Sequence record: MN850578.1
Source: Escherichia phage nomo
Strand: one strand, 5' to 3'
DNA: 64,000 nt
Shown here: piece by piece, positions 42,040 through 55,500 of the stretch
How positions within the stretch are numbered: the stretch's first letter is position 1
Layout of the letters: the number at the start of each line of letters is the position of its first letter
Position numbers and translations under genes: made by a program
Notes under the pieces: generated by a model
Told to the model about the DNA's origin: nothing
The model's database searches: none
What the model saw: only the letters and a program-made list of their open reading frames with translations

Positions 42040-42540
42040 GGGGGATTTCTAAAATGGATTTCCTCCTTTTGATATTTCACCGGGCTGGATATTTTAAAAT
42101 TCTTAGAAAATCAGAAAATGGATCGAAAACTAAAATGGATTTTTCAGAGTAGGCGCGACAAGCTGAATAACTCATCCTATCGTTTGCACCATATTCCAGG
42201 CCACCATTATAGATTTCCCACACATGCTAACCTCCCTCTACTAGAACTTCCTCCACTTACCCTTGACCTTCTATGGTAACAATCTAACCGCTATCTTGAA
42301 GTTGCGGTGCAGCTTTCCAGGTACTCGATCTACTTTTCATTTCAGGGCTTGGATTTTCTGAAAATTTTTCTCGATAAATTTCTCAGTACTCGATCTGTTT
42401 TTCGTCTTCTGAATCGGATTTTCTGGAAATCGTTCCGGCTCTCAACCTGAAATTTTTGGGGACGAAATCGATTTTTCGTTTTCAGAAATGGATTTTTAAA
42501 ATTTCTATATGGGAATATTTTAGTGGATACTATTTTATAG
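42040..42540. repeat. iteron-like direct-repeat region (non-coding)
   Basis: At least six copies of aaatggattt / cggattttctgg and two copies of caggtactcgatct / cagtactcgatct; no credible ORF. Confidence 0.6.
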
Positions 42541-42643
42541 TAAATTGTTACGGAGGGTAATTAGCGTGCTAATTAAATTTATTAAATGCGAGGAGTTCTC
42601 ATTTAGAATCTTGAATGATAATCATTCTCGTTTGCAGAATAAC

Positions 42644-42677
42644 GGGCAGGCCCGGTGATTGTCTCCCGGCCCCTGTT
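42644..42677 (+). repeat. conserved motif, copy A
   Basis: gggcaggcccggtgattgtctccc..cctgtt; degenerate copy at 42789-42806; inverted copy at 52271-52299. Confidence 0.6.
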
Positions 42678-43023
42678 GCCCCGGCTTGTTATTATAGTAT
42701 CACACAGGACAAAGAAAGCAAGGATTTTTTTTTGCATAAATTTTTAAATGATAATGATAACCGTTCTCATTTTATGCAGCGCTCATCCCTGGTGGTTGTC
42801 TCCCCCGTCACCGGTGCCTGCCGTCCTTTCGATAGGTATATTGTGCCACCTGTCGGGGCCGCTGTCAACACTTTTCAAAAAATTTTTCTAACCTGATGCG
42901 CTAACCGCTGCAACCTGGCGGGGCCAGCCTGGCAGGACCTAACTGACCAGGTGGGAGAGGGTGAAATCTTGCAAACCTGGTAGGCCCATGCTGTAGGGTA
43001 AACAATTGAAGAGGAGGTACAAA

Positions 43024-43161
43024 AATGAAAGGTAATGCTACTCACCTGGGAAATGTAGTGATTAATGATACAGAAGCGCGGGAACATAAAGAAGAGTACG
43101 AAAAAATGGTGGTTAACCTGGCGGGGGGCGGCAGGTGGATTCTATCATAAAAATAATTTAA
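43024..43161 (+). CDS. possible small protein (45 aa)
   Basis: Perfect AGGAGG 7 nt before ATG; below track threshold. Confidence 0.35.
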
Positions 43162-43169
43162 AATAATCG

Positions 43170-43198
43170 TTGACAACAAGGTTAATCATGGTATTATT
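43170..43198 (+). promoter_or_regulatory. sigma70-like promoter
   Basis: TTGACA, 17 bp, ATTATT. Confidence 0.5.
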
Positions 43199-43247
43199 AC
43201 CCTACAAGGTGAACAACACCGCACTAACCAGTAAAGAGGATAAATTT

Positions 43248-43445
43248 ATGAACGCATACGGGATCAAAGTACGTCGCAACACTCGCCAGGTGGTCACCGA
43301 TCAAATGGTTTGCCAGGTGGACGTAACCATCAACAACGGGCAAGGCCTTTATAAATTCCGTCGCGGTCAGAGCTATACCCGGCAACAGCTTAATCGTTGC
43401 GCCCTGACAAAAGGACAGATCAACCACTGGTTTAATAAAAAATAA
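43248..43445 (+). CDS. hypothetical basic protein
   Basis: ATG after aaagagga; track TTG start at 43170 is the promoter -35. Confidence 0.5.
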   Translation: MNAYGIKVRRNTRQVVTDQMVCQVDVTINNGQGLYKFRRGQSYTRQQLNRCALTKGQINHWFNKK

Positions 43446-43448
43446 GTA

Positions 43449-43477
43449 TTGACATATAGTCCGACACCAAATACACT
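43449..43477 (+). promoter_or_regulatory. sigma70-like promoter
   Basis: TTGACA, 17 bp, TACACT. Confidence 0.5.
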
Positions 43478-43509
43478 AAAAGCACAAAAGACACTAAGAG
43501 GATAAAATC

Positions 43510-43908
43510 ATGAAAACCACTACCTTTAATTTTGATAATGCGGACTTTTCTTTTTCTGATGTCAAGAACTACCGCCGTGATCGTGGATTTTACAAGGCTT
43601 ATAATCTGGTGGGCCTGGACGATGACAATAATTTGCACGAAGTAGCTGAGATCCGGTATTATGCCGCCGCCAGCGGGAACACTCACTACTGCGTGTTTTG
43701 GATTCACGACAACAAGAACAATAAGTACGGTTATACTGGCGGCAAGGCGAGCGGTCACGGTTACGATAAAGCTAACGCAGCACTTGAGAGCGCATTAAAT
43801 GCTATGGGGATCACTGCCGACGGCTGGATCTACGAAGAAGAGTTTTTGTCGGCACTTGCTGACCACCTGGGCTATAAAAAACACATTGTAACATGCGCCC
43901 ACGAATAA
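43510..43908 (+). CDS. hypothetical protein
   Basis: RBS aagagga. Confidence 0.55.
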   Translation: MKTTTFNFDNADFSFSDVKNYRRDRGFYKAYNLVGLDDDNNLHEVAEIRYYAAASGNTHYCVFWIHDNKNNKYGYTGGKASGHGYDKANAALESALNAMGITADGWIYEEEFLSALADHLGYKKHIVTCAHE

Positions 43909-43914
43909 AAATCA

Positions 43915-43942
43915 TTGACACGCTGCAAAATTTAAGTAAACT
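43915..43942 (+). promoter_or_regulatory. sigma70-like promoter
   Basis: TTGACA, 16 bp, TAAACT; followed by hairpin ggcgggaatgtttcccgcc (43953-43971). Confidence 0.45.
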
Positions 43943-43990
43943 AGACACAAAAGGCGGGAATGTTTCCCGCCAGCACAAAGGAAAAAGATC

Positions 43991-44386
43991 ATGAATAAGA
44001 ACGTACGCCGCATCATGAACGAACTGGCAAACGATGAAAAAATTATTGATATGCATTTGGTCAACATTTGCCGCCGTTGTGTAACATATAACAACCGCGC
44101 CGCAAAAGCGTGTGAGATGAACGCAAAAGGCACCTTAAAGCCCTTTCAGGTGGTTGTAAAATCTATAACTAGCGCAGCAGGCCAGGCGCAGGACCACAAC
44201 AACGAGAGCGCTAATATTGATCCGTCTTACGTAATGAAACGGATCCGGACTTGCAAGAATAAAGAGCAGGTATATAACGTCATAGATTGGCTGGACTCCC
44301 TGGGCGATGTGGTTTACAATAGGTTTTCTGCAGCTATCGAGATCCAGCTTGACAGATTGGACGGGAAAGTACTAAAAACTTATTGA
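43991..44386 (+). CDS. hypothetical protein
   Basis: ATG after aaaggaaaaag. Confidence 0.55.
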   Translation: MNKNVRRIMNELANDEKIIDMHLVNICRRCVTYNNRAAKACEMNAKGTLKPFQVVVKSITSAAGQAQDHNNESANIDPSYVMKRIRTCKNKEQVYNVIDWLDSLGDVVYNRFSAAIEIQLDRLDGKVLKTY

Positions 44387-44387
44387 G

Positions 44388-44434
44388 TTTATTTTTAGAT
44401 GGCCTTGACACCAGGGCCATCAATAAAGTAAACT
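44388..44434 (+). promoter_or_regulatory. repeated promoter/operator cassette, copy 1
   Basis: tttatttttagATGGCCttgacaccagGGCCATcaataaagtaaac; -35 TTGACA inside 6-bp inverted repeat; near-identical at 45010 and 48745. Confidence 0.55.
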
Positions 44435-44465
44435 AACCACAGTTGAGCGGAAAAGGAGGCTTAAA

Positions 44466-44585
44466 GATGAGCACTACACGCCAGCACACAAAGGTAACCA
44501 TCATCGTTTGCATCATTGGGTACATCCTGGCGCAAATGTTGATGGGTAGCGCCAACGGTGTCGCAAAATTTTTCTTAAACTTTTA
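44466..44585 (+). CDS. small hydrophobic peptide (39 aa)
   Basis: RBS aaaaggagg; MSTTRQHTKVTIIVCIIGYILAQMLMGSANGVAKFFLNF; single predicted TM helix. Confidence 0.4.
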
Positions 44586-44586
44586 A

Positions 44587-44614
44587 TTGACAAGCTAACT
44601 TAAATCGATATAAT
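44587..44614 (+). promoter_or_regulatory. sigma70-like promoter
   Basis: TTGACA, 16 bp, TATAAT. Confidence 0.6.
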
Positions 44615-44665
44615 AAGCACATAAACGGGAAAACTTCCCAGAACACACAAAAGGAGAAAAACACC

Positions 44666-45007
44666 ATGACTACTATGACCGCCTCAGAAAAAGCTATGCA
44701 GATCGCTGAACTGAAAAAACAGATCGCAGACCTTGAGAATAAGATCGATAACTTTGAAATCGACGAGGACAAGTACGACGAAAACTATGATGAATGGTTA
44801 GACGAGATCTACGGAGAAATTATGATCGGAAACATTTCTTTTCTTCCGTCGCGTATCCTCAAGGAGCTAGATCCTATCGCTTACCGCTGCGGATTTAGCG
44901 ACTACATCGACAGCCTGGATATTGAGGACGATGAAGAATACCAGGAATTACAGACAGAGTTAGAAGAAGCAAAAGAAGAGCTTGCGGAGCTGGAAGAAAA
45001 CGAGTAA
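44666..45007 (+). CDS. hypothetical acidic coiled-coil protein
   Basis: RBS aaaggag; 113 aa, Glu/Asp-rich. Confidence 0.55.
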   Translation: MTTMTASEKAMQIAELKKQIADLENKIDNFEIDEDKYDENYDEWLDEIYGEIMIGNISFLPSRILKELDPIAYRCGFSDYIDSLDIEDDEEYQELQTELEEAKEELAELEENE

Positions 45008-45009
45008 GC

Positions 45010-45054
45010 TTATTTTTAGATGGCCTTGACACCAGGGCCATCAATAAAGTAAAC
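45010..45054 (+). promoter_or_regulatory. repeated promoter/operator cassette, copy 2
   Basis: Identical core to copy 1. Confidence 0.55.
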
Positions 45055-45096
45055 TTTATACTGTTAACACTGAACTAATGCATAGGAGTTAAAACC

Positions 45097-45342
45097 ATGG
45101 CAGCACTAATCACCAAATATTATGCCCCTACCAACACCAAAAGCGCCCGTATCATGGTAAAAGGCTTCGGACGTAAAAAGGTGTACACCTGGGATTATGC
45201 CTTAGACACGGAAGACAACTACACCAACGCAATGACCGATTTTATTAATGAACTAAATAAGCAGATCTTGACAAGTTATAAAGTGACTGATATTGCTTAT
45301 ATAGGTGAAGGCGGGATCTGTTTTGTAGGCATTGTGAAATAG
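45097..45342 (+). CDS. hypothetical protein
   Basis: RBS aggag. Confidence 0.55.
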   Translation: MAALITKYYAPTNTKSARIMVKGFGRKKVYTWDYALDTEDNYTNAMTDFINELNKQILTSYKVTDIAYIGEGGICFVGIVK

Positions 45343-45416
45343 TTATTTTTTCGGTGGTCCTGGCTGCAGGGCCATCTATAAAGATAATTTATCAACACCA
45401 TGAAAGGAGAAAGTAC

Positions 45417-45770
45417 ATGATCAGCGGGGCTAGTTTTATTATTGGCGCTATTGCTACGGCTTTAATTGTAAACAAGATCCAATCTAAAAACGAAAAAGAT
45501 AGCAACGCGCTCACAGAATACCCATTTTGGGTATTCAACGACAACGAAGACTACATAATCAAGTACAAAGATGAGAGAGGCGACCAGGTAACACCGCGAC
45601 CGATCCCAGCTTACAAGATGCAGGAAACACTATACCGCCTAAAGGCCGGAGGCGCAAAGATCGTAGACTTTTGGGGATATGATTGCAAGGATCAGGAGGT
45701 CATAAAACGTCGTATCCGGGCGATTCAGGCAAATATTGAAATTAGTAAAGGGGAAATTTATGAAAATTAA
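45417..45770 (+). CDS. hypothetical membrane-anchored protein
   Basis: ATG after aaaggaga; N-terminal helix ISGASFIIGAIATALIV; preceded by a diverged cassette copy at about 45345-45395. Confidence 0.5.
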   Translation: MISGASFIIGAIATALIVNKIQSKNEKDSNALTEYPFWVFNDNEDYIIKYKDERGDQVTPRPIPAYKMQETLYRLKAGGAKIVDFWGYDCKDQEVIKRRIRAIQANIEISKGEIYEN

Positions 45771-45957
45771 TTTCGAAAAAATTGTAAAGCGCCCCCACGA
45801 TTCCGAAGAGCTGCCGGAACGCCGCCAGCGTAACAATAAACTGAATAAACCGAAAAGGTTCGGGAAGATCTGGAGGAATCACTATGATCGCAAATTACCG
45901 GGCCTGCTTTTGGAACGTGAACGACAGGCGGAACGATACCGCCACAAAGGCAAATAA
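45760..45957 (+). CDS. hypothetical basic protein
   Basis: ATG after aagggg, overlapping upstream stop; Arg/Lys-rich. Confidence 0.4.
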   Translation: MKINFEKIVKRPHDSEELPERRQRNNKLNKPKRFGKIWRNHYDRKLPGLLLERERQAERYRHKGK

Positions 45958-45965
45958 CAACCAAC

Positions 45966-45991
45966 GCCCCGCCATTGTGCGGGGCTTTTTA
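45966..45991 (+). terminator. rho-independent terminator
   Basis: gccccgc-cattgt-gcggggc then tttttattt. Confidence 0.7.
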
Positions 45992-46127
45992 TTTCTATCC
46001 TACGAATAGCGCCCCTGGTTGGCACCACAAACGCCACAAAAGCCCCTACCTATGCAATCCCCTTTCTTAGCCTGAAAACATCACCCAGGACCGTTTTATG
46101 GTGTTAAAAATATCTTTTATTTAAAGC

Positions 46128-46156
46128 TTGACACCTTGGAATCGCCTGGATATACT
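46128..46156 (+). promoter_or_regulatory. sigma70-like promoter
   Basis: TTGACA, 17 bp, TATACT. Confidence 0.6.
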
Positions 46157-46191
46157 AACCACATCAAAGCAAGAAGAAAGGAGTAAACGCC

Positions 46192-46452
46192 ATGCGTAAA
46201 TTAAAAAATTTTGATAAAGTCGATGTTGTCCTGAATAATTTTTACTACTGCAATAATAAGGCCGTTTGGTGGCGTGATAGTTCCACCGATAAAGTTAAAG
46301 CGCGCTTTCTCCAGGGGCACTGGCAAGGCCGCCCAGTGATTAAGATCCGGGGGCAATTGGTAGCGTTTAAAAATTGCCGCCGTGTTGATGACGTTGAAGA
46401 GATTCTAAACATTTTACGCCACAATAATTTAAAAAATAGTGTTGACAAGTAA
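46192..46452 (+). CDS. hypothetical protein
   Basis: RBS aaaggag. Confidence 0.55.
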   Translation: MRKLKNFDKVDVVLNNFYYCNNKAVWWRDSSTDKVKARFLQGHWQGRPVIKIRGQLVAFKNCRRVDDVEEILNILRHNNLKNSVDK

Positions 46453-46469
46453 GCCTCAATAAGTATACT
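46442..46469 (+). promoter_or_regulatory. sigma70-like promoter
   Basis: TTGACA, 16 bp, TATACT; followed by hairpin ggcgggaaaacttcccgcc (46480-46498). Confidence 0.55.
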
Positions 46470-46526
46470 TAAACACACAGGCGGGAAAACTTCCCGCCAC
46501 TAACAAAGAAAATAGGAGAAAATATC

Positions 46527-47150
46527 ATGACCACCGTTAACATTACCGCAGGTTACAATTTATCTTTCGACGTGCTGACCGACGAACAAAAAGAAAAAGC
46601 CGTTGAAATGGTCCGCGAAAGAGAAGAACACAGCGGGGATAACTTTTTTGCAGAAAGTGTAATTGAATACTATAAAGAATATGTTTTTCCAGAGTATGGC
46701 CTTGAAGATACCGAAGTACATTGGTCAGGCTTTTGGTGCCAGGGTGACGGCGCGTCAATCAGTGCTGAAAACGTGGATTTAGAAAAATTTTTGCGTAAAG
46801 TAAAGGCCCTGACCAAGTTCCGATCAATTCGTCACTTGTTCGGCACAATGCACGATGGCGAGTTATCAGCCAGTGTTGAGCGTGATCCATATAGCCGCTA
46901 TAGTCACGAAAACACTGTAAGCGGATACATTGATACCACCTGGCTAGATCTGACCGCCAAACAAGAAAACAAAGTGGAAGACTTGGAAGAGCTGATCACC
47001 GAGACGGTACGGGAGCTATCCCGCAAGGTTTACGTAGACCTGGAGGAGGCCTATCTTGAACAGTTTACTACCGAAAACCTGATCGGCCTTATTGAGGCCA
47101 ATGATTGGCGGTTTGATGTGGATGAATATGGCGAGATGACTTTTTCATAA
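46527..47150 (+). CDS. hypothetical protein
   Basis: RBS ataggaga; 207 aa. Confidence 0.55.
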   Translation: MTTVNITAGYNLSFDVLTDEQKEKAVEMVREREEHSGDNFFAESVIEYYKEYVFPEYGLEDTEVHWSGFWCQGDGASISAENVDLEKFLRKVKALTKFRSIRHLFGTMHDGELSASVERDPYSRYSHENTVSGYIDTTWLDLTAKQENKVEDLEELITETVRELSRKVYVDLEEAYLEQFTTENLIGLIEANDWRFDVDEYGEMTFS

Positions 47151-47158
47151 ATAAAGTG

Positions 47159-47186
47159 TTGCAATAACCTAAAAACCTGCTATATT
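47159..47186 (+). promoter_or_regulatory. sigma70-like promoter
   Basis: TTGCAA, 16 bp, TATATT; followed by hairpin ggggcaagacgtttgcccc. Confidence 0.5.
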
Positions 47187-47239
47187 AAAACTCAAGGGGG
47201 CAAGACGTTTGCCCCACACAAAACAAAGAGGAAAACATT

Positions 47240-47620
47240 ATGAAAAACACTACCAAGGCTATTGACACCGTTATGTTTAACCTGGTTACATTCCGTGAAG
47301 ATATGAAAGATCTTCCACGTGAAACAGTGTGCGATCACATTGAAAACTATCGCAAACTAATCAAAGAGTTGCCCCTAAAACGTGACCAGTATGCGGCTAA
47401 CGCTATGCTCAACGCCATGATCAAAAAGATGATCCAGTGTGATTTAACCCTGGCCTATGACTATGCGGGTGGTCGTTTTGCAGTATACAATCAGCCCGTG
47501 CCCGGTATGGGCACCACCGAAGAATTGCACGCGCTCAATCTAAAACAAGACGTATGGGATAACATGCCCCGCGTGGTGGTGTGGGCAGAAAGCGGAAAGA
47601 TTTACGGCGATAATTTTTAA
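47240..47620 (+). CDS. hypothetical protein
   Basis: RBS aaagagga. Confidence 0.55.
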   Translation: MKNTTKAIDTVMFNLVTFREDMKDLPRETVCDHIENYRKLIKELPLKRDQYAANAMLNAMIKKMIQCDLTLAYDYAGGRFAVYNQPVPGMGTTEELHALNLKQDVWDNMPRVVVWAESGKIYGDNF

Positions 47621-47630
47621 TCAGGTAACA

Positions 47631-47656
47631 GGCGGCATATTTGCCGCCTTATTGTT
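47631..47656 (+). terminator. rho-independent terminator
   Basis: ggcggc-atattt-gccgcc then ttattgtt. Confidence 0.6.
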
Positions 47657-47684
47657 AAACAGAACTGCAAAAGAGGTACATAGA

Positions 47685-48056
47685 ATGGAATTTATTATTT
47701 TGGCTGTAGTAGTTGCCTTGTTCAACGCCTGGATCGCTGGCAAGATGGGTAGATCCGCCTTTTTATGGTTTATTATATCTATTTTCCTGGGGGTGGTTGC
47801 AACTATTGTACTTGTTATCCTTGCAATTGTTGACAAGGGGAATAATAGAAAGGGTAAAGTATTTTCAGACCTGTACGACGCTCAAACGTTTGTCAACGCC
47901 TATTATAGTGATCTTCCAGTCTCCCTACGCTGCAGCCTGGCACAACAAGTTTTCGATGAGGCTAAAACCAGAGATCAAGCCCATGAGATATGTTTAACTG
48001 AGGCGGATCGCCTATTTGAGAGGAATAGAAAATATGTGGGCCAACCGTTTAAATAA
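47685..48056 (+). CDS. hypothetical membrane protein
   Basis: ATG after aaagaggt; two hydrophobic helices at N-terminus. Confidence 0.5.
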   Translation: MEFIILAVVVALFNAWIAGKMGRSAFLWFIISIFLGVVATIVLVILAIVDKGNNRKGKVFSDLYDAQTFVNAYYSDLPVSLRCSLAQQVFDEAKTRDQAHEICLTEADRLFERNRKYVGQPFK

Positions 48057-48275
48057 TGCCACGTTAATTAATCCCTTTAGTGAAGATTTGAAGCCAGCCG
48101 CCTGGCGTGATGGATTCAATAACGAACGCTTTATTTTCAAGCCTGATCTTGAGGAATTTTATAACAATGGATCGAACAACGACAGAGATAATTTTTCTTG
48201 TGGTGTGCGTAGTGATGGTACTCCTGGGGGCCATTGTAAACCACGTCGCTACTAACAGGGGGAAAGGGGGAGACG

Positions 48276-48395
48276 ATGACACCCAAGGATAAGCCCCGCA
48301 CCGATAAGGCGCGCCGTGTTATGGTATGGCTTGAGATCATCGCCCTTGAAATATTGTTAGGGGTAGGGATGTACTTTATCGCTGTAAGTAACTAA
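48276..48395 (+). CDS. small hydrophobic peptide (39 aa)
   Basis: ATG after gggggaga; MTPKDKPRTDKARRVMVWLEIIALEILLGVGMYFIAVSN; region 48016-48292 also holds overlapping alternative frames, unresolved. Confidence 0.35.
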   Translation: MTPKDKPRTDKARRVMVWLEIIALEILLGVGMYFIAVSN

Positions 48396-48399
48396 GAAC

Positions 48400-48427
48400 G
48401 GCCCCCCGATCATGGGGGCCTATCTTT
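48400..48427 (+). terminator. putative terminator followed by A14 tract
   Basis: ggccccc-cgatcat-gggggcc then tatcttt and 14 consecutive A (48428-48441). Confidence 0.4.
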
Positions 48428-48454
48428 AAAAAAAAAAAAAATTCTTCCGGGGTG

Positions 48455-48482
48455 TTGCAATCCGGTCCGGAATGTGGATAAT
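48455..48482 (+). promoter_or_regulatory. sigma70-like promoter
   Basis: TTGCAA, 16 bp, GATAAT; followed by hairpin ggggagacactcccc. Confidence 0.5.
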
Positions 48483-48541
48483 AACAATCAACGGGGAGAC
48501 ACTCCCCACCGCATAGACAAAGTTCCAAAAGGAGAAACAAA

Positions 48542-48742
48542 ATGAGCAACAATATCCGCGTTATTAACTTCAAAAAAGAAGAAAAAATTGCCGTGCTGAT
48601 TGACGGTCAAGAAATCTTTAAAGGTGATTATGAAGATCATCAAACGGCGATTAGTATCACTCGCGTGATTGGTTACCATAATTTTTACCCTCAAGGCGCT
48701 GAGGCAGCAGTAAAACGAATTAAAGAGATTGTAGGCCTGTAA
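48542..48742 (+). CDS. hypothetical protein
   Basis: RBS aaaaggag. Confidence 0.5.
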   Translation: MSNNIRVINFKKEEKIAVLIDGQEIFKGDYEDHQTAISITRVIGYHNFYPQGAEAAVKRIKEIVGL

Positions 48743-48744
48743 AA

Positions 48745-48790
48745 TTTATTTTTAGATGGCCTTGACTCCAGGGCCATCAATAAAGTAAAT
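48745..48790 (+). promoter_or_regulatory. repeated promoter/operator cassette, copy 3
   Basis: Same 46-bp cassette with one substitution in the -35 (TTGACT). Confidence 0.55.
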
Positions 48791-48833
48791 TTAAACCCTG
48801 TTAAAATAATCAGTGCAAAAAGGAGTAATGATC

Positions 48834-49133
48834 ATGTTTATCCAGGCTAATAATCTTTATTTCTTTGATGGTCAGATCGTAGACGGCGTGGAGGTGGAAA
48901 TCACCGGGTGCCCTGGCGGTCAGGTTATGACTTTTCGGAATAATGCCTTTGATGATTCTCATATCGTTATGAGAATGGAAGTTAGTAAGCTGGATGACAA
49001 GAAAACACTTATCGACTATTCCGTCAAAGATCATCCAGACTACCACATGATCTATGGTGATTTGTGCATTGTTGACCGTGACAAGGTGGGCGGCATTGTG
49101 ATCGCTATTGTGAACGATGTTTTCTCAAACTAA
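48834..49133 (+). CDS. hypothetical protein
   Basis: ATG 9 nt after aaaaggag. Confidence 0.5.
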   Translation: MFIQANNLYFFDGQIVDGVEVEITGCPGGQVMTFRNNAFDDSHIVMRMEVSKLDDKKTLIDYSVKDHPDYHMIYGDLCIVDRDKVGGIVIAIVNDVFSN

Positions 49134-49150
49134 TTTCAGCAGGTGATTTT

Positions 49151-49501
49151 ATGAAAGTAAAACTATATTACCTTAATGAGCTTAACCCCCTTGCCCAGGT
49201 CCGCGCCCTGGCTAATACCTTGATTTGTGAGAAATCTGTATATTGTGTTGAGCTTAACGCCATGCGTGAACGTCTCAAAGGTGGTTACTTTGACATCCAT
49301 GCTGCAATCAACGGCCTGAATATAGAATTTATCCGCTTACGTAACAGCCGCCAGAATCTGGCAAGAATGGAACAAGATCCGGCCCACCTTCGTAAGCTGG
49401 TTATTGAAAATCATCTGATGTTTAATGCCGATGGTGATTATTACCATTTTCACCGTAAACGCTGGTACCGTGGCGGCAATACAGGCAAGAATGCAAAATA
49501 A
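49151..49501 (+). CDS. hypothetical protein
   Basis: RBS aggtga. Confidence 0.5.
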   Translation: MKVKLYYLNELNPLAQVRALANTLICEKSVYCVELNAMRERLKGGYFDIHAAINGLNIEFIRLRNSRQNLARMEQDPAHLRKLVIENHLMFNADGDYYHFHRKRWYRGGNTGKNAK

Positions 49502-49538
49502 GGCCCCAGGCAGGGCCTGCAGCGATATAATCACATAA

Positions 49539-49570
49539 AGGCTATGCGGTTGCATGGCCTTTATTATTTT
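49539..49570 (+). terminator. rho-independent terminator
   Basis: aaggctatgc-ggtt-gcatggcctt then tattatttt. Confidence 0.55.
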
Positions 49571-49617
49571 AGCGTTACAGCGGCCCCAAGGCGCTTAAAA
49601 AATTTTTAAAGAAGTAC

Positions 49618-49645
49618 TTGCATCAAGTCCTACAATATGGATAAT
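49618..49645 (+). promoter_or_regulatory. sigma70-like promoter
   Basis: TTGCAT, 16 bp, GATAAT; followed by hairpin gggggcggccccc. Confidence 0.5.
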
Positions 49646-49702
49646 AGGACGTGTCAGGGGGGCGGCCCCCAATCATTAACCGGATAGATAGGAGTTAAAA
49701 TC

Positions 49703-49987
49703 ATGGCTATTGTCACCGTTGGCGATGTAGTGGAAATGGAAGCAAAATACTTAAAAGCGGGTATGCATATCCTACGGAATGATCAAGAATTGTTATTAAC
49801 GATGGTAGACTATAATCCCGGCCAGGATTATCCAAGCATCGACTACTTTTTTGAGTATGTTGATGAAGAATTGAAAGAGGATGAGGCTTATCAGGGTGAA
49901 TTCTGCAATTTCTTTTGCCCTGATGAGGTTGTAAAAGTTATCTATCAACCTGGAGTACCTTTCCCGCTGCACGCTATCAATAAATAA
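49703..49987 (+). CDS. hypothetical protein
   Basis: RBS ataggag. Confidence 0.5.
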   Translation: MAIVTVGDVVEMEAKYLKAGMHILRNDQELLLTMVDYNPGQDYPSIDYFFEYVDEELKEDEAYQGEFCNFFCPDEVVKVIYQPGVPFPLHAINK

Positions 49988-50041
49988 ACCTGGCGGGGCC
50001 GAAAAGGCCCCAATTATGAAAATAAAGAGAGGTAAATCATC

Positions 50042-50275
50042 ATGATGGAACAAATTAAACGCGCTGAGGCTATTAATGGCAATGTGATCTATTTTGTCAG
50101 CAAAAACGAAAAAGGCGTACCATATGCGGCGGTAATAGTACAACCTGACGGCGATTATTGGTTTACTGTATACGGATCTTATTCTTTCGGGCGTCCGGTT
50201 CATGATAGAATTTTGAAAGTAGCAAATCCGACCGGGAAAAATATCACAGCAGAAAAATTTTTTGAAAATAGTTGA
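50042..50275 (+). CDS. hypothetical protein
   Basis: RBS aagagagg; preceded by hairpin ggggccgaaaaggcccc. Confidence 0.5.
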   Translation: MMEQIKRAEAINGNVIYFVSKNEKGVPYAAVIVQPDGDYWFTVYGSYSFGRPVHDRILKVANPTGKNITAEKFFENS

Positions 50276-50299
50276 CATGACCATATAAGACTGTAATAT
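50272..50299 (+). promoter_or_regulatory. sigma70-like promoter
   Basis: TTGACA, 16 bp, TAATAT; followed by hairpin ggggggcaacaagcccc. Confidence 0.55.
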
Positions 50300-50351
50300 A
50301 TAAATCAAAGGGGGGCAACAAGCCCCACCAACCACAAAGAGGATAAAAATC

Positions 50352-50531
50352 ATGGCTATTATTGCAAAGACTGAGATCGTAGGCTTAGATTCTATTCTCC
50401 TCGCATATGAGGAAGCTATAGAAATGTATGTGGTTTCCTATGGTGAATATATCCGTGAATATAAATCTATTGATCTAGCTTTTGAATGTTATATTCGCCA
50501 GGTCAATAAAGCATATGATGATTATCGTTAA
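50352..50531 (+). CDS. small protein (59 aa)
   Basis: ATG after aaagagga; below track threshold. Confidence 0.45.
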   Translation: MAIIAKTEIVGLDSILLAYEEAIEMYVVSYGEYIREYKSIDLAFECYIRQVNKAYDDYR

Positions 50532-50613
50532 AATAGTTTGACAACAGTCAACAATCTGGTAAAGTGTACTACATAGCGCGGGAATACTTCCCGCCATTAA
50601 TGAGGGTAATTTA

Positions 50614-50751
50614 ATGAAAACTTTCAACGCAACAGCCTCGACAATTGGTTATATTATTACAGTACAAGCCGTGGATCTGGTAGCAGCAGCAAACAAGATT
50701 AAAAAGATGATTCCGCCAGGTAGTGAATTTTCCGTTTGGGAAGTAAAATAA
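50614..50751 (+). CDS. small protein (45 aa)
   Basis: ATG after gagggtaa; preceded by promoter-like TTGACA at 50538 and hairpin gcgggaatacttcccgc. Confidence 0.4.
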   Translation: MKTFNATASTIGYIITVQAVDLVAAANKIKKMIPPGSEFSVWEVK

Positions 50752-50754
50752 ATC

Positions 50755-50782
50755 TTGACAATAATTTATTACTTGATAGACT
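50755..50782 (+). promoter_or_regulatory. sigma70-like promoter
   Basis: TTGACA, 16 bp, TAGACT. Confidence 0.5.
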
Positions 50783-50834
50783 GTATTTCGTAGTGCGGGG
50801 CAATAAGGCAACGCCCATTAATGAGGGTAGAATC

Positions 50835-50939
50835 ATGTTAGAGAAAATTTTCACGGTTGTAGTAGTTGGCCTGGCATTATCGGTTGGATGGGTTGCAACT
50901 ATGGCTAACATGATCCTATCTTCCCACGGTATCGGTTAA
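50835..50939 (+). CDS. small hydrophobic peptide (34 aa)
   Basis: ATG after gagggtag; MLEKIFTVVVVGLALSVGWVATMANMILSSHGIG. Confidence 0.4.
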   Translation: MLEKIFTVVVVGLALSVGWVATMANMILSSHGIG

Positions 50940-50940
50940 A

Positions 50941-51165
50941 GTGAATCAAATGATCACGAATAAAACAGGTAAAACGGAATTCTTGCGCGGCTTGCAGGTC
51001 GGCAAGCCTGAGATCTGGCATTGCACTAAAACACCACGTGACGAAATGAAAGACTTCACCGCCACGCTGCAACGGGTAAAGATATCCATCACGCAGAAAA
51101 AGGCCTTGATAGTGGTGGAAGGTGAGATCCCTCAAACCGTTGTTATAGTTGAGCGTACAGCATAG
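50941..51165 (+). CDS. hypothetical protein
   Basis: ORF without clear RBS; start GTG 50941 or ATG 50950. Confidence 0.3.
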   Translation: MNQMITNKTGKTEFLRGLQVGKPEIWHCTKTPRDEMKDFTATLQRVKISITQKKALIVVEGEIPQTVVIVERTA

Positions 51166-51256
51166 TTTAATTTATACCGATACCCGAAAATTAACCAACA
51201 AAGCATAAACAGGCGGTTACCGCCGCCTTAAACGTAGCAGAAAGAGGATAGACACA

Positions 51257-51541
51257 ATGAAAAAGATGATCGCAGTGGTTGCCCTGGTTGTTGGACTTAA
51301 TGCGCCTGTAATGGCTAAAGAGCTGGCAAAAGAGGTTAATCTAACGGATATCCATGCCGTCAATCAAATCGGGGTTACTTATCGCTTATGCCTTGCCGCT
51401 AAAACTTTTAATGACGGTACAACAGAGTACTACGGATTCGAGGGTATCCGGTGCGGTGAGCTTGCTCGCGACCTTAAGGAAGATCCAGACCTGGAGGATC
51501 TACCCATAACCGTGAACGGTAAAGCTTACTTTAACCGTTAA
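51257..51541 (+). CDS. hypothetical secreted protein
   Basis: RBS aaagagga; signal-peptide-like MKKMIAVVALVVGLNAPVMA. Confidence 0.55.
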   Translation: MKKMIAVVALVVGLNAPVMAKELAKEVNLTDIHAVNQIGVTYRLCLAAKTFNDGTTEYYGFEGIRCGELARDLKEDPDLEDLPITVNGKAYFNR

Positions 51542-51690
51542 CCGTGAAAAAGATAATCATTACCTTGGGGATTGTGGCGGGATCGCTGGCGCTCTTTCCC
51601 CTTATGGTTAGATATGTGCTGATCAGTATTGTCCTGGTGGTCAGTGATCTACTAGAAACGGTTGGCACCTTGTTTTAAAGAGCGATAAAA

Positions 51691-51882
51691 ATGAATGTTG
51701 AACAAGTTAGAAAGGTATTGGCGGTACTGCGTTATCATAATCATTGCAAGGTGAAGAATGATCCTGATTATCTTGATTCATCCCTTGAAGAGGATACACT
51801 ACAAGCCATAAGCAACATGCAAGAATTGCTTAAGCGTATGACAGAGAAAAACCGACCGGACTACATAGGGGGTAAAATATGA
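51691..51882 (+). CDS. hypothetical protein
   Basis: RBS aaagag. Confidence 0.45.
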   Translation: MNVEQVRKVLAVLRYHNHCKVKNDPDYLDSSLEEDTLQAISNMQELLKRMTEKNRPDYIGGKI

Positions 51883-52190
51883 TCGCTATTACGCCAACCG
51901 TTTTAGATTGGTATCGGCAACGCATAGCGCCTCCGCTGGCTATCTTCAAAGATGCGGAAGCAAAACAACGCCGGATCTCAATACATGAGATCATCAACCT
52001 TAACGCTGGAGGCACACCATACCGCCCAGGACCTGGCCGTGAGATGGACAATACGTTAGCGATCCTGAAGATACGCCGTAAACGGTCCTCCCTTACGCTG
52101 GACTCATTACACACAATGCAGCCTCCGTTCCAGGTGACCGGGAAACGGATCGCCAGGTCCTGGACAAAGGCCAATGATCGGACCGTATAA
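51879..52190 (+). CDS. hypothetical protein
   Basis: ATGA overlap; RBS aggggggt. Confidence 0.45.
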   Translation: MIAITPTVLDWYRQRIAPPLAIFKDAEAKQRRISIHEIINLNAGGTPYRPGPGREMDNTLAILKIRRKRSSLTLDSLHTMQPPFQVTGKRIARSWTKANDRTV

Positions 52191-52270
52191 ATAAAAGTGT
52201 TTTGGTACTGATTTTGGGGTTGACTTGTTCGGCCCCTTTTGCTATTCTTATTAAACGGGCGGCACTTGGG

Positions 52271-52299
52271 AACAGGGGGAGACAATCACCAGGCCTGCC
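52271..52299 (-). repeat. conserved motif, inverted copy
   Basis: Reverse complement reads ggcaggcctggtgattgtctccccctgtt, matching 42644-42677. Confidence 0.6.
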
Positions 52300-52324
52300 T
52301 GTCATATAAGAACTATAAAAACCG

Positions 52325-52353
52325 TTGACATCTGCCATGGGGTGAGGTAACAT
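52325..52353 (+). promoter_or_regulatory. sigma70-like promoter
   Basis: TTGACA, 17 bp, TAACAT; followed by hairpin gggcaaaagtgccc. Confidence 0.5.
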
Positions 52354-52407: not shown

Positions 52408-52680
52408 ATGTCAAGCTGGATTAATCAAGAAGTCGAATCACGTTTTAATGCTATTTGGGATCTCATCGAAAAAGAGGACGGAACATCAAGCCCTTATCTC
52501 AATAATCTTGAATTCCATTTCGTGGAAGCGATGAACGCAGAACATGATCACGAAGGTGGTGCGGATGAGTTCGCTAAAGGGTATGGCTTCAACAATGCCA
52601 ACGAAATGATCGAGGCGGTTGTACTCCAGGCTGAGGAAGATTATCAATTAAAAACGCTTGAATTCTGCCGCCGTAAGTAA
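52408..52680 (+). CDS. hypothetical protein
   Basis: RBS agagagga. Confidence 0.5.
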   Translation: MSSWINQEVESRFNAIWDLIEKEDGTSSPYLNNLEFHFVEAMNAEHDHEGGADEFAKGYGFNNANEMIEAVVLQAEEDYQLKTLEFCRRK

Positions 52681-53006: not shown

Positions 53007-53025
53007 TACAACAAGATGAACGGTC

Positions 53026-53050
53026 AGGGGCTTAAAGCCCCTTTCTTTTT
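53026..53050 (+). terminator. rho-independent terminator ending the plus-strand early block
   Basis: aggggc-ttaa-agcccct then ttctttttg. Confidence 0.7.
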
Positions 53051-55500
53051 GTCTTCTCTTTTCCTACCATAAACGGCCCTACCTGGCAAGTGGAATAATT
53101 GACGAGCCATCAATCCCACACACTGTACAAATATACATGGAAAATAACTATTGCATAATTTTTCATTGTGTGGTAGCAAGGCCATTTTTACACGTTTTTC
53201 CTTCCAAAATTGCACGTAATGCAGCATTTGCACAAAATTTAACCTGATGCATATCTTCAATAGCTTGTCAACAACTAAAAATCTTTATAAGTCATACACT
53301 TACATAACTACAAAAACGTTTTCTACGTGAAAAATCGAGTATAACTATAGCCGCCAGATCTCAGAATTTACGTACGCTCGCCATTCTATAGCCTGCTAAG
53401 CATTTATTCCAACCATAGAATAACTGAATAGTCAATACCTGCATAAAATAATTATTCGTGTAAACTGCATAACATAAATCGGCCCAGGTGTCAACATTTT
53501 TCGTAAACAGTCTGGAATTGTCACGTTAGGTTACCATAAGTAGAGAAATCTTTAGTCGTCTAATGTTTACTGTACGTTACTATATTAACTGAAATCATTA
53601 GATGACTAATAGAAAGATAAGAAATAATTAACAATACAATTATTTTATCTGTAACAATAAGGCAACTATGCAAACGAATGGCATGGCGCGACGGAGTCGC
53701 GACATAATATAAAAGCAGTAACCATCACCCCCGTGATAGTTTGTCTGCAAACTATTAATCAGATCATAGTTGCCTTGTATTTAGTTAATCATGACATAAC
53801 AAGCAAGGCAACTATAGATCTGCTAATAGTTGCCCTGCTTTTATATTATGTCATGCTAATTATAATCAGTGCGATTATTGTCATGTATAATTATTGTCAT
53901 GCAAACGAATGGCATGGCTGATTATCGGTGTGTAAACAGTCAATCATGTAAATGGTTAGCATGTGAACAATCAGGAATGTAAACAATCCAGTGTGTAAAC
54001 TAATAGGTGTGTAAAAGTGTCATGTTGTGTCAGTTAGGTCACATTATGTCAGACAAGTTTTTCTCCTCTTTGTCAAGTGCTGCATGAAAAATTTACAAGC
54101 TTGTATGGTAGCATTTTTGCGGCCCTGTTTACATTCAGGAGTGTATGTATAATCCTTGTTGTGTGGGCGTTTAGACGTCTGGACGGTCAGAAGTCTGCAG
54201 GTCAATATCTAATCTATTGGCTGCTAACTATATCCCCCACAAATAATAAGAAATATAATTGTTATGTGCGTAAACAGTAACCCATGTTATCAATCCCTGT
54301 ATGTATCGCCAGTTGTGCGCATAATGGGTATTATGTTAAATTGCCCGTAATGATAACTATTCTCACAATGATAGGTATTCTCATTCACCCCCACAAGATA
54401 GGTTGCAAATGTTGTGCCACTGTGTGAACGGCCTCACCTATTAATTTGCCTCACTGCCTCGATATTTGAGAATTGTTATAAGAATGAGAAGTATTCCCAT
54501 TCCGTCCGCCTGGCAGCACTCCAGTCGCTACGGCTCCTGACAGGGCAGCACTCCTGTAGGTCAGGTCAAAATCGTGGTAGAACTGGACCTGTTCGGATAT
54601 TTCTGGCTGACTCTTCAGGTCTGTGTGGGAAAAGCCAACCCCTCCGGCGGGGCAGGGGATATCTGCAGGAAAATTGCAGGTCAATTAAAAATTTACGTGG
54701 TGTATGAAGCGCTCTTCAGGCAAGGCATGTATTAGAGGATGAAACCCTCTTCAGGCAATGATATTTGTGGGTGGGATATTTGCTGGAAAGCCAGATATGA
54801 CGGGACTCCCGGCGGGGCAGGGGTAGTACAGACAGGGAAAATATGAGGATGTAATTGGGGAAATTGATCAGACAGGTAGAGTATGGAATATGTTACAGGT
54901 ATGTTAAATATGGAGGTTGAATATCTGTAGGATTTGTGTGTAAAATCAAAGACTTAAGGGGTGTTGTGGTATTTTCTATAAATAATTCAAGTTTAATAGG
55001 CAATATTTGTCTCTATCCGCTTTGTGTGGTAAACAGATTCAGATGAAATTGGTTTACAAGTGTATACATAATATACAAATTAAAGATACAAGAAACCCCC
55101 CTCCCCCCTCGGCTACCATTCACCTTTTCCTCTGACTGGTACTTAAACACTTATTCAGACTCTTCAGGTTATCACCCATATATCATATGGCAGTGACTGG
55201 TGTCCTCCGGCCCCTCTTTCGTCACCCGTCCGCTTCGCCATGCTAATGCCATAGCCAATGGTTCGGTTGTTCACCCTGTTCACTCAGGTGTATCTCCATA
55301 CCCCTTCAAACCGAAGAGAACAGAAAACCCGAATTACTCGGTAAAAGAAAAGAGAAGAACTTAATTTTATCAGGATAGGCAAGAATGTCAAGGCATGACT
55401 GCTCACTAAACAAGCAAACAGTCATGTGTGGAAGGTAAGTGATTGTGGTGGTGGGAAATTTAGTTGAAAGATGTGTTATAGGTGCGCTTCCAGCACTTTA
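53051..55500. repeat. 2.4-kb non-coding, AT-rich, repeat-dense region between convergent gene blocks
   Basis: No ORF with RBS; contains palindrome ggcaactatagatctgctaatagttgcc (53797-53824), inverted ggcaactat copies, direct repeats gcaaacgaatggcatgg (53660, 53891), GTAAACAG-type repeats, about 75-bp imperfect direct repeats with ccggcggggcagggg (54643, 54799) and ctcttcagg (x4). Confidence 0.7.

Follow-up and report, generated by a model that had tools for sequence, protein, structure and literature searches.

The lambda nutL and nutR sites (boxA plus boxB) and the putL and putR sites of HK022 are promoter-proximal antitermination RNAs, and GACAA, which is found in the core of the element studied here, is the sequence of the P22 boxB pentaloop. 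Two further kinds of phage elements bear on this study, namely the promoter-early stem-loop (PeSL) cassettes of T4-type phages (Arbiol et al. 2010, PMC2839356; Comeau et al. 2014, PMC4122927) and pseudo-ToxI, a phage-encoded non-coding RNA of PhiTE (PMC3475682). We analyzed a window of 64,000 nucleotides of Escherichia phage nomo (MN850578.1), an rV5-like coliphage (Vequintavirus), in which a first-pass annotation had noticed a motif of ~25 bp repeated in opposite orientations. To judge from its sequence, this motif is the core of a previously undescribed segment of ~55 nucleotides that starts, at three dedicated promoters, exactly where host RNA polymerase should initiate. The element was not found described in the literature searched.

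The repeat was borne out, and its copies sit at the positions named earlier. The 24-mer GGGCAGGCCCGGTGATTGTCTCCC is found at 42644-42667 on the plus strand and, as a reverse complement with 2 mismatches, at 52277-52300, and none of 100 shuffled controls contained any match to it. The arms of the inverted repeat (42639-42667 and 52277-52305) are 29 nucleotides long and 90% complementary. The third, degenerate copy was also confirmed at 42788-42806, where the sequence is 95% complementary to 52275-52293. A 14-nucleotide core, GGGAGACAAYCACC, is identical at all three sites, of which two are on the minus strand and one is on the plus strand, and allowing <=2 mismatches gave 6 matches versus 0.72 expected. 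The GRPGDCLP peptide common to the open reading frames (ORFs) through the copies is real, and these ORFs are, as had been assumed, not genes: the ORF at 42615-42896 is frameshifted in pangalan, a 99.5%-identical phage, and carries stop codons in the relatives L020 and L025. Since the ORFs across the copies are not preserved in relatives, we rejected a coding-sequence reading. The whole-genome search that had been proposed recovered the same three copies, and no further ones, in a complete 137-kb relative. A motif present just three times in a genome of 137 kb cannot define a middle or late promoter class, nor a general class of phage promoters.

It is also evident that the extent of the motif had been underestimated: the core repeat is real, but the conserved unit comprises ~55 nucleotides plus a promoter. 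Similarly, the idea of a phage-specific promoter holds in so far as the motif is promoter-associated, but the motif itself is no promoter and lies at ~+17 to +45 past ordinary sigma-70-type promoters. Copy B (52255..52308, plus strand; ACGGGCGGCACUUGGGAACAGGGGGAGACAAUCACCAGGCCUGCCUGUCAUAUA) spans 54 nucleotides from the predicted +1 A, with its core at 52277-52290 (CM match, 67.8 bits, E=3.5e-22). In its promoter region (52216..52254, plus strand), a terminator-like hairpin (GGGGTTGACTTGTTCGGCCCC) with a T-run contains the -35 TTGACT (52220-52225), and the -10 TATTCT (52243-52248), with an extended TG, precedes a 6-nucleotide spacer. A second, ordinary promoter (TTGACA-17-TAACAT; 52325..52353, plus strand), corresponding to P168 in the rV5 annotation, lies between element B and the gene at 52408-52680. 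Copy A (42636..42687, minus strand; AAGCCGGGGCAACAGGGGCCGGGAGACAAUCACCGGGCCUGCCCGUUAUUCU) has its core at 42667-42654 and a CM match at 42636-42689 (45.6 bits, E=9e-14). Its promoter (42688..42721, minus strand) consists of the -35 TTGCTT (42721-42716) and the extended -10 TGaTACTAT (hexamer 42699-42694), with an overlapping TATAAT at 42696-42691. Copy C (42771..42833, minus strand; AUCGAAAGG-ACGGCAGGCACCGGUGACGGGGGAGACAACCACCAGGGAUGAGCGCUGCAUA) has 9 additional 5′ nucleotides, its core at 42804-42791 and a CM match at 42771-42824 (17.9 bits, E=0.003), and in its 5′ half it matches copy B of pangalan and of rV5. The promoter of copy C (42834..42889, minus strand; -35 TTGACA at 42868-42863, -10 CACAAT at 42845-42840 with extended TG) shares an A/T-rich upstream tract with plus-strand early promoters, and inverted repeats match the promoters at 50251-50277 and 46423-46447.

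Among 35 distinct copies, all 35 have a -10-like hexamer 6 nucleotides before the conserved first A, although this figure is not fully independent because the +1 positions were partly set by the -10 rule. A2 and T6 are present in 34 of these 35 hexamers, and the extended TG in most. The copies have -35/-10 pairs with a spacing of 16-18 nucleotides, placed to start transcription at the element; most copies from enterobacterial phages reach a -35 score of 4-6 of 6, and most units are preceded by a terminator hairpin containing the -35. Fourteen diverse copies align across 54 columns with all 5′ ends at column 1, and short internal gaps are needed by four A-type copies only. The length of the unit from +1 is 47-55 nucleotides across all types and 51-55 nucleotides in most. 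The transcribed segment, with its invariant stretch AGAYAAnCACC, is the most conserved part, whereas the promoter and hairpin vary between copies.

The motif turned out to be widespread when other phage genomes were searched, and it keeps a strict position relative to predicted starts; it is thus neither confined to the window nor unlinked to transcription units. In Vequintavirinae, Stephanstirmvirinae and an Aeromonas phage, the unit is conserved as an isolated island, and similarity in other genera is limited to this island of ~54-90 nucleotides, from the -10 through the core. Orthologs of copy B were found in 8 or more other phage genera or groups and A-type orthologs in phAPEC8, PVP-SE1, Mydo, POP17, F1M1E and PhAER-3, and the divergent A/B layout ~10 kb apart is also present in PDX, CM1, RudolfGeigy, BI-EHEC and Mt1B1_P17. 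The GC-rich block that precedes A-type copies in PVP-SE1-like phages has no counterpart in the window. In a 46.8-kb metagenomic phage that is unrelated, at least 6 copies lie within ~10 kb, each ahead of an ordinary gene promoter. No protein common to this phage and the rV5-like phages was found in the ~10 kb of it that was compared, so a common protein partner was rejected, which points to a host partner. The genes after B-type copies are unrelated between clades, so the unit is autonomous, and the leader of one conserved gene was rejected as a reading. The element is found in more than one subfamily and even in a phage that is otherwise unrelated, and so it probably makes use of a constant feature of the host. 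Complete E. coli genomes do not contain it, and a host or bacterial origin was rejected, since its 19 matches in species-representative genomes are close to the ~17 estimated by chance and lie in coding DNA. Rfam 15 gave no gathering-level matches in the window or in 8 related loci, and permissive scans gave chance-level matches only; a known RNA family was rejected on these scans.

A regulator site, at the RNA or the DNA level, is a possible role for the motif, as had been proposed. With some reserve, and at somewhat less than an even chance, we favor the reading that the unit is a transcribed 5′-terminal RNA module working as RNA from a host sigma-70 promoter. Promoter geometry, the start of conservation, constant length, copy number, phylogenetic spread and a mosaic junction are what we observe; from them we infer transcription of the unit, its action as RNA, its fold and its mechanism. 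Each copy would be a small transcription unit, shielded from upstream transcription by a terminator-type hairpin; the host sigma-70 promoter would come next, and RNA polymerase would start at the first A of a segment of 51-55 nucleotides. The 5′ end would pair with the stretch just 3′ of the core into a 5′-terminal stem, and AGAYAAnCACC would then be mostly unpaired and readable by a host factor or by RNA polymerase itself. In rV5-like and phAPEC8-like phages, one or two units would fire leftward and one rightward, standing at both ends of a block of small early genes of ~10 kb. The RNA may mark or modify the transcripts leaving this early block, for example by elongation or termination control or through stability; alternatively, it may accumulate as a short free RNA. 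Counting against the RNA reading, the A and C copies are antisense to all annotated genes, so that a benefit to genes is not obvious.

Complementarity between the 5′ and 3′ parts of the unit is register-specific, with 76% of cells pairing versus 31-54% with slid partners, and many of these pairs are G-U, possible in the sense RNA only. Folding is more favorable for the sense than for the antisense strand (mean z -0.88 versus -0.36, paired p=0.003), with z-scores near zero for several members, including ESCO13, CR9 and phAPEC8. The core is unpaired more than in flank-shuffled controls (0.84 versus 0.77), and a stem enclosing it was not predicted consistently (p ~0.06). Shuffling the 3′ partners gave equal paired fractions (66.0 versus 66.1% and 76.4 versus 77.3%), that is, no covariation, and double-sided changes in the proposed helices amount to 1-2 pairs only. 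RNAalifold predicted no consensus structure for the full set. A covariation-supported structure, absent both in the MAFFT alignment (29 copies) and in the register-consistent set (14 copies), was rejected, and the fold is a proposed one. The L021 copy has a clean hairpin plus U terminator ~95 nucleotides from the start, and in its phage four copies have a U5-6 tract ~10 nucleotides after the core; no terminator was found after the rV5-like copies, including those in the window. Other candidates were dropped by eye: a sigma-dependent pause (-10-like GACAAT), a G-quadruplex, a CsrA GGA site and a DnaA, IHF or LexA site are not conserved across copies, and an RfaH ops site is seen in L005 only.

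The unit could instead be a PeSL-type mobile cassette, in which the conserved sequence is homology for modular gene shuffling and the transcribed 55 nucleotides have no function. The recombination footprint suggested by the first-pass annotation gains real support at copy B: homology with pangalan breaks exactly at the -10 of the copy B promoter, in PeSL-like fashion (PMC4122927), and resumes at 52237, with a mosaic insert of 345 nucleotides (51892..52236, plus strand) that ends at this promoter and replaces 31 nucleotides in pangalan. The insert holds most of the gene at 51879-52190, the protein of which is 70-75% identical to those encoded ahead of the B-type element in CR9 and FKP3, and this inserted cassette is common to both phages. 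The layout of a hairpin with the -35 plus a -10 fits published PeSLs (PMC4122927), and the hairpin, T-run and promoter design of copy B recurs in rV5, ESCO13, CR9 and the 46.8-kb phage. Further PeSL-like families exist in the same early region (D1 family), upstream promoter types are swapped between clades, and an otherwise unrelated phage also has the element. However, PeSLs would be expected in many copies across hyperplastic regions and with conservation centered on promoter and stem-loop, whereas the unit has three copies per genome, of which two lie within a noncoding region that is conserved and not between swappable genes, and its conservation peaks in the transcribed 55 nucleotides while promoter and hairpin vary. 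Recombination homology alone would not maintain the invariant AGAYAAnCACC and a constant length across subfamilies. We consider a functionless cassette rather unlikely.

A DNA-level operator, at which a phage or host protein binds the double-stranded core as a roadblock or repressor, possibly with Fur, would explain why primary sequence is conserved without covariation and why CACCnGG is a direct repeat within the segment. The Fur box consensus is GATAATGATAATCATTATC. Downstream of element C, the site GATAATGATAACCGTTCTC (42750..42768) shows 16/19 matches to the canonical Fur box, and a search of the window with <=3 mismatches gave 2 matches, one of them at 42750, versus 0.01 expected. The palindrome GAATGATAATCATTCTC (42613..42629) lies ~7 nucleotides downstream of element A, so that copies A and C have a Fur-box-like site in common, and both sites fit the 7-1-7 form tGATAATnATTATCa. 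Such a site follows every A/C-type copy, in phages of Escherichia, Salmonella, Klebsiella, Pectobacterium, Proteus and Aeromonas, and Fur-box-like operators also adjoin some B-type copies. The site at 42613-42629 also matches a generic extended palindrome, AAATGAGAATGATTATCATT, of unrelated viral contigs; as the matches listed from the viral-contig scan were unrelated contigs with no element loci among them, the Fur-like box appears to be a generic site, and a special linkage between box and motif was rejected. Unlike a Fur box over the promoter, the present sites lie ~+60 to +80 downstream of it, and they could also be iterons or operator sites for a phage protein. The core, moreover, is not palindromic and starts at a variable distance from the predicted +1 (~+17 to +36), whereas orientation relative to the promoter is strictly kept in all copies, despite copies on both strands. 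Conservation beginning exactly at +1, a thermodynamically favored sense strand and the 46.8-kb phage with no common phage protein in the ~10 kb compared also argue against an operator, which we regard as improbable.

A trans-acting base-pairing small RNA, with the conserved core as seed and phage or host mRNAs as targets, seems very improbable. In its favor, the units come with promoters of their own and one copy with a terminator of its own, the core is conserved and mostly unpaired, and there are multiple copies per genome. Most copies, however, have no terminator, and the best duplex in the whole phage genome, with the antisense strands of the three loci set aside, reaches -25.7 kcal/mol, within the range of shuffled cores (-24 to -32), so a prominent trans target in the phage genome was rejected. 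Least probable of all is an origin primer or R-loop, in which a G-rich RNA would invade adjacent A/T-rich, iteron-bearing noncoding DNA to start replication: the G-rich 5′ half is followed by A/T-rich DNA with repeated boxes of 19-21 bp, 65-nucleotide tandem repeats lie at 42311-42496, the units point into the two large noncoding regions and PVP-SE1 and Mydo keep the noncoding architecture, but GC skew tracks gene orientation only, with no inflection at 42-43 kb, the at least 6 copies within ~10 kb upstream of ordinary gene promoters in the 46.8-kb phage are too many for origins, and the B-type copies of rV5-like and ESCO13-like phages lack adjacent boxes.

The rV5-like, phi92-like and phAPEC8-like phages are common in therapy cocktails and in defense-system screens, for example the BASEL collection, and to our knowledge their early regulation is essentially unmapped. 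Few noncoding sequences in the early regions of these phages are as well conserved as this element. Should it turn out to be an RNA that targets RNA polymerase or a host factor, the protein-independent regulatory RNAs of phages, which are rare, would gain a member; should it mainly be a cassette for recombination, modular shuffling of the PeSL kind would reach past the T4-type phages. The Fur-box-like sites linked to it suggest a testable idea, namely that host iron might be sensed by early phage transcription. That all this combines into a new RNA class of ~55 nucleotides, independent of phage proteins, acting on host RNA polymerase or another host factor as a put-like elongation modifier or decoy, carried by a terminator/promoter cassette prone to recombination and passed between unrelated phages and, for A/C-type copies, coupled to host iron status via the adjacent Fur boxes, we consider unlikely.

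Compared with known systems, the RNA module proposed here resembles pseudo-ToxI in being non-coding, in its occurrence in the same subfamily of phages and in its possible action on a host factor. The PhiTE locus, however, lies elsewhere, in the tRNA region, and the present element lacks the 36-nucleotide tandem repeats; a ToxI or pseudo-ToxI mimic was rejected, as the alignment score of 9 was reached by 66 of 500 shuffles. Like nut and put, the units are short elements just past early promoters, in opposite orientations on divergent transcripts, that may act in nascent RNA. Unlike nut, the unit has no conserved boxA: the nearest likeness to a lambda-type boxA (CGCUCUUA or UGCUCUUUA beside the hairpin) is CGCUAUUC, present in some copies only, with GUCAUUC or CAUAUAAG in others. 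The pair that would close a GACAA pentaloop is variable (A-U, A-C, A-A); GA(C/U)AA is invariant, whereas the flanking A and N do not covary and the predicted enclosing stem is heterogeneous. The analysis identified no N-like gene, and copies A and C run antisense to genes. With PeSLs, the unit shares a stem-loop terminator plus a sigma-70-type early promoter, repeated among small early genes and, at copy B, placed at an insertion or replacement junction between close relatives. It differs from PeSLs in being found in rV5-like and phi92-like rather than T4-type phages, in having three copies per genome, conserved across subfamilies and in an unrelated phage, and in adding a more strongly conserved transcribed segment of 55 nucleotides with an invariant core.

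We found GGGCAGGCCCGGTGATTGTCTCCC at 42644-42667 (+) and its reverse complement, with 2 mismatches, at 52277-52300, whereas 100 dinucleotide shuffles gave 0 matches. A repeat finder pairs the arms 42639-42667 and 52277-52305 (29 nt, 90% complementarity), and a third copy at 42788-42806 pairs with 52275-52293 at 95%. The motif, its inverted copy and its third copy are therefore confirmed, by search and by repeat finder, where the first-pass annotation had placed them; they are called here copies A (~42.65 kb, minus strand), C (~42.80 kb, minus strand) and B (~52.28 kb, plus strand). All three sites share, without mismatch, a 14-nucleotide core, GGGAGACAAYCACC. The GRPGDCLP peptide that had been reported as common to the copies does exist, but it is meaningless, since ORF 42615-42896 is broken in relatives, with a frameshift in the 99.5%-identical phage pangalan and stop codons in the comparison sequences L020 and L025. 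By a relaxed search, the window and the complete pangalan genome carry only three copies. A covariance model likewise gives 3 hits in the window and 3 equivalents in pangalan, where the only other hits are two weak and short ones (27 and 17 nt). Having only three copies per genome, the motif is not a general middle or late promoter, and the earlier suggestion of a phage-specific promoter is not sustained. The observation itself is real, and the unit is much larger than had been reported, namely a conserved unit of a promoter plus 55 nt.

Over this region the sequence shares 99.5% identity with Escherichia phage pangalan and with further Vequintavirus (rV5-like) members, and all the annotated genes near the copies are on the plus strand. 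Copies A and C lie in a noncoding gap of ~0.75 kb (roughly 42280-43020) between the replication-gene block and the early-gene block, the latter consisting of roughly 9.6 kb of small promoter-rich genes. Copy B lies near the far end of the early block, two genes ahead of a 2.5-kb noncoding zone (53010-55490) between convergent gene blocks. An intrinsic terminator downstream of copy B is at 53026-53042. This convergence zone holds several repeat families, including GGCAACTAT (four times near 53660-53830), a (G/A)TGTAAAC run (53925-54020) and two copies of CCGGCGGGGCAGGGG (about 54640 and 54810); it could be an origin or a packaging site. Three ~65-nt tandem repeats (families D2 and D7) with GATCGAGTAC and TTTTCnGAAAAT were also seen at 42311-42496. 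PVP-SE1 and Mydo have CGATCGAGAAC-like motifs downstream of their element as well, and thus the noncoding architecture is conserved. At about 43025-43150 (+) there is a tiny ORF of ~41 aa with a very strong ribosome-binding site, GAGGAGG, which is a gene in the CarlMeissner annotation and a noncoding region in that of pangalan.

A sigma-70-type promoter is located just upstream of every copy (read with the core as GGGAGACAA). The copy B promoter (+) has -35 TTGACT, a spacer of 17 and -10 TATTCT, with a predicted +1 at 52255, and its -35 falls in the loop of a terminator-like hairpin with a T-run after it. The copy C promoter (-) has -35 TTGACA, a spacer of 17 and -10 CACAAT (predicted +1 at 42833), and the A/T-rich tract upstream of it is the same as that of the plus-strand early promoters (repeats I5 and I11). 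The copy A promoter (-) has -35 TTGCTT, a spacer of 16 and -10 TACTAT preceded by an extended TG (predicted +1 at about 42687). Taken together, the window, public phage genomes and IMG/VR contigs gave 35 distinct copies. All 35 have a -10-like hexamer exactly 6 nt ahead of the first base (A) of the segment, the starts having been partly chosen by this rule; the hexamer has A2 and T6 in 34 of the 35 copies, and most show the extended TG. An alignment of 14 diverse copies that puts every 5′ end at column 1 spans 54 columns, and the only gaps it needs are short internal ones in four A-type copies (counterparts of copy A). The segment is 47-55 nt long, and 51-55 nt in most copies. The rV5 annotation marks only P168, a second promoter, downstream. 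Other promoter-associated hairpins were seen among the early genes. The 49-nt D1 family (44386-44434, 45007-45055, 45341-45389 and 48743-48791) lies between small early genes and has a hairpin, GATGGCC..GGCCATC, with -35 TTGACA in the loop and then -10 TAAACT, resembling the terminator/promoter cassettes known as promoter-early stem-loops (PeSLs). A few bases past early promoters are hairpins GGCGGGAAnnnTTCCCGCC (43947-43972, 46474-46499 and 50571-50596), which look like 5′-UTR stem-loops and are possibly mRNA stabilisers.

It is also evident that the element is carried by many other phages in IMG/VR and BLAST searches, rather than confined to the window, the case that the first-pass annotation had set against it. 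The IMG/VR scans found the core in rV5-like contigs and in one 46.8-kb contig. By BLAST, the B unit matches as an isolated island of 54-90 nt running from the -10 through the core (76-89% identity), mostly without an annotated feature, in Phapecoctavirus (ESCO13 and nepoznato), Certrevirus (CR9), Justusliebigvirus (alia, FKP3 and Serratia phage KKP_3264) and the Salmonella Vequintavirinae phage SSBI34, among others. In INPHARED, ~270 records were matched by an A/C-unit query and 240 by a copy B query. The A unit and its downstream box are kept in phAPEC8, PVP-SE1, Proteus phage Mydo, Klebsiella phages, Pectobacterium POP17, Enterobacter F1M1E and Aeromonas phage PhAER-3. The divergent layout, with A leftward and B rightward at ~9-10.5 kb apart, is found in PDX, CM1, RudolfGeigy, BI-EHEC and Mt1B1_P17. 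No Rfam family matched at any threshold, and the element was found neither in 5,426 complete E. coli genomes nor in species-representative bacterial genomes, whose 19 hits are near the ~17 that we estimate by chance and all fall in coding DNA. We found no description of the element in the literature searched. The unit is phage-restricted, common to several subfamilies and apparently undescribed. In other phages a GC-rich noncoding block (ACGCCACCCCACGGCGAAAAGGCGGGGCUAACGUACCGGGC...GGAAGGUGGAUCGCCGGUAG) was also seen 60-100 nt upstream of the A-type promoter and in the same orientation (L167 535-625 in PVP-SE1, L168 521-610 in Mydo and L166 575-690 in phAPEC8; also in L170 and L171), with a gene of 60-61 aa ahead of it in PVP-SE1 and Mydo; this block of PVP-SE1-like phages has no Rfam match and is not in the window.

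The unclassifiable 46.8-kb metagenomic phage (IMG/VR contig 3300027123_000194; L015, L021 and L037) carries at least six copies of the element in ~10 kb, each laid out as terminator, -10, 6 nt and element. A U5-6 tract follows several of these copies, and a bidirectional terminator follows one. The L021 sequences tested had no INPHARED nucleotide or protein match, and only one of the seven ORFs tested has a PHROG family. In the contig parts compared, this phage and the rV5-like phages have no protein in common, which makes a host component, or RNA polymerase, the likelier candidate for any partner of the element.

Several observations favour an RNA. Conservation starts at +1, and orientation to the promoter is strictly kept. 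There is complementarity between the 5′ end (A-U/C-x-G-C-G-G-G...) and the bases directly 3′ of the core (...UGCCyGyyAU), as in F1M1E (AUAGCGGG/CCCGCUAU), L044 (GGCGGGCA/UGCCCGCU), SSBI34 (GGCGGGCA/UGCCUGUU) and rV5 (GGCAGGCA/UGCCUGUC). Pairing in this register holds in 76% of cells, compared with 31-54% when the partners are slid by 1-3 columns, and many of the pairs are G-U, possible in the sense RNA only. The sense strand folds better than the antisense (mean z -0.88 vs. -0.36, paired p = 0.003), p-values which overstate independence because the sequences are related. The core is unpaired more often than in flank-shuffled controls (0.84 vs. 0.77). Other results speak against a proven fold. 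Fold z-scores are near zero in several members, no more than about half of the copies are predicted to form a stem around the core, and RNAalifold on all 29 copies gave no consensus structure. Covariation was not detected in either of two pair-count tests, as partner shuffling gives 66.1% against the observed 66.0%, and 77.3% against 76.4%; the complementarity stems from conserved G-rich and C/U-rich columns. The invariant positions, AGA-Y-AA-n-CACC, suggest recognition of the primary sequence. The leader of one conserved gene was rejected, since B-type copies are followed by unrelated genes in different clades, whereas the window, CR9 and FKP3 share a syntenic gene upstream. A likeness of the reverse complement to ToxI failed when tested.

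The sequence AAAUGAGAAYGRUUAUCAUU is found after all A/C-type copies and, in the CR9/SSBI34 group, after the B-type copies as well. At 42750-42768, 16 of 19 positions match the canonical Fur box, and the canonical consensus at ≤3 mismatches has 2 hits in the window vs. 0.01 expected. On its own the box is common among unrelated viral contigs, where the consensus forms an extended palindrome, and in Certreviruses it occurs as a tandem array of two to four. Both large noncoding regions hold clusters of Fur-box-like sites of the 7-1-7 form tGATAATnATTCTCa (42613-42629, 42750-42768, 51546-51564, 54343-54386 and 54466-54500). Judged from their sequence, these sites could place early transcription of the phage under iron-responsive control, or alternatively could be iterons of a phage protein.

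The best-supported reading, which we hold tentatively and at somewhat short of even chances, is a transcribed 5′-terminal RNA module that a host factor or RNA polymerase recognises through its invariant core; such a module would mark transcripts running out of the early block to either side. Its main rival, which we consider rather unlikely, is a PeSL-type recombination cassette, with a conserved segment that has no function of its own. The window and pangalan are 98.7% identical up to 51891 and then from 52237, where homology returns at the -10 of the copy B promoter; between these points, 345 nt in the window stand in place of 31 nt in pangalan. Within the insert are a different terminator/-35 hairpin and the greater part of gene 51879-52190. 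The gene is absent from pangalan; its protein is 70-75% identical to those of Cronobacter phage CR9 and Klebsiella phage FKP3, in both of which a matching gene and hairpin type precede the B element, and the pangalan/rV5 hairpin is of the ESCO13 type. The gene appears to be a cassette swapped between subfamilies at the element. Because PeSLs behave in this way, the junction lends real support to the earlier idea of a recombination footprint, as do further PeSL-like families in the window, such as D1; but this idea does not account for the stronger conservation of the transcribed segment compared with the promoter. A DNA operator is less likely. So is an origin primer, as GC skew at 42-43 kb does not point to an origin, and so is a base-pairing small RNA, since no target in the phage genome stands out besides the antisense strands of the element's own loci.

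We classify the unit with phage promoter-associated noncoding elements and cassettes. A close parallel is in the composite terminator/promoter PeSL cassettes of T4-type phages, for which junction behaviour like that at copy B has been described (PMC4122927).
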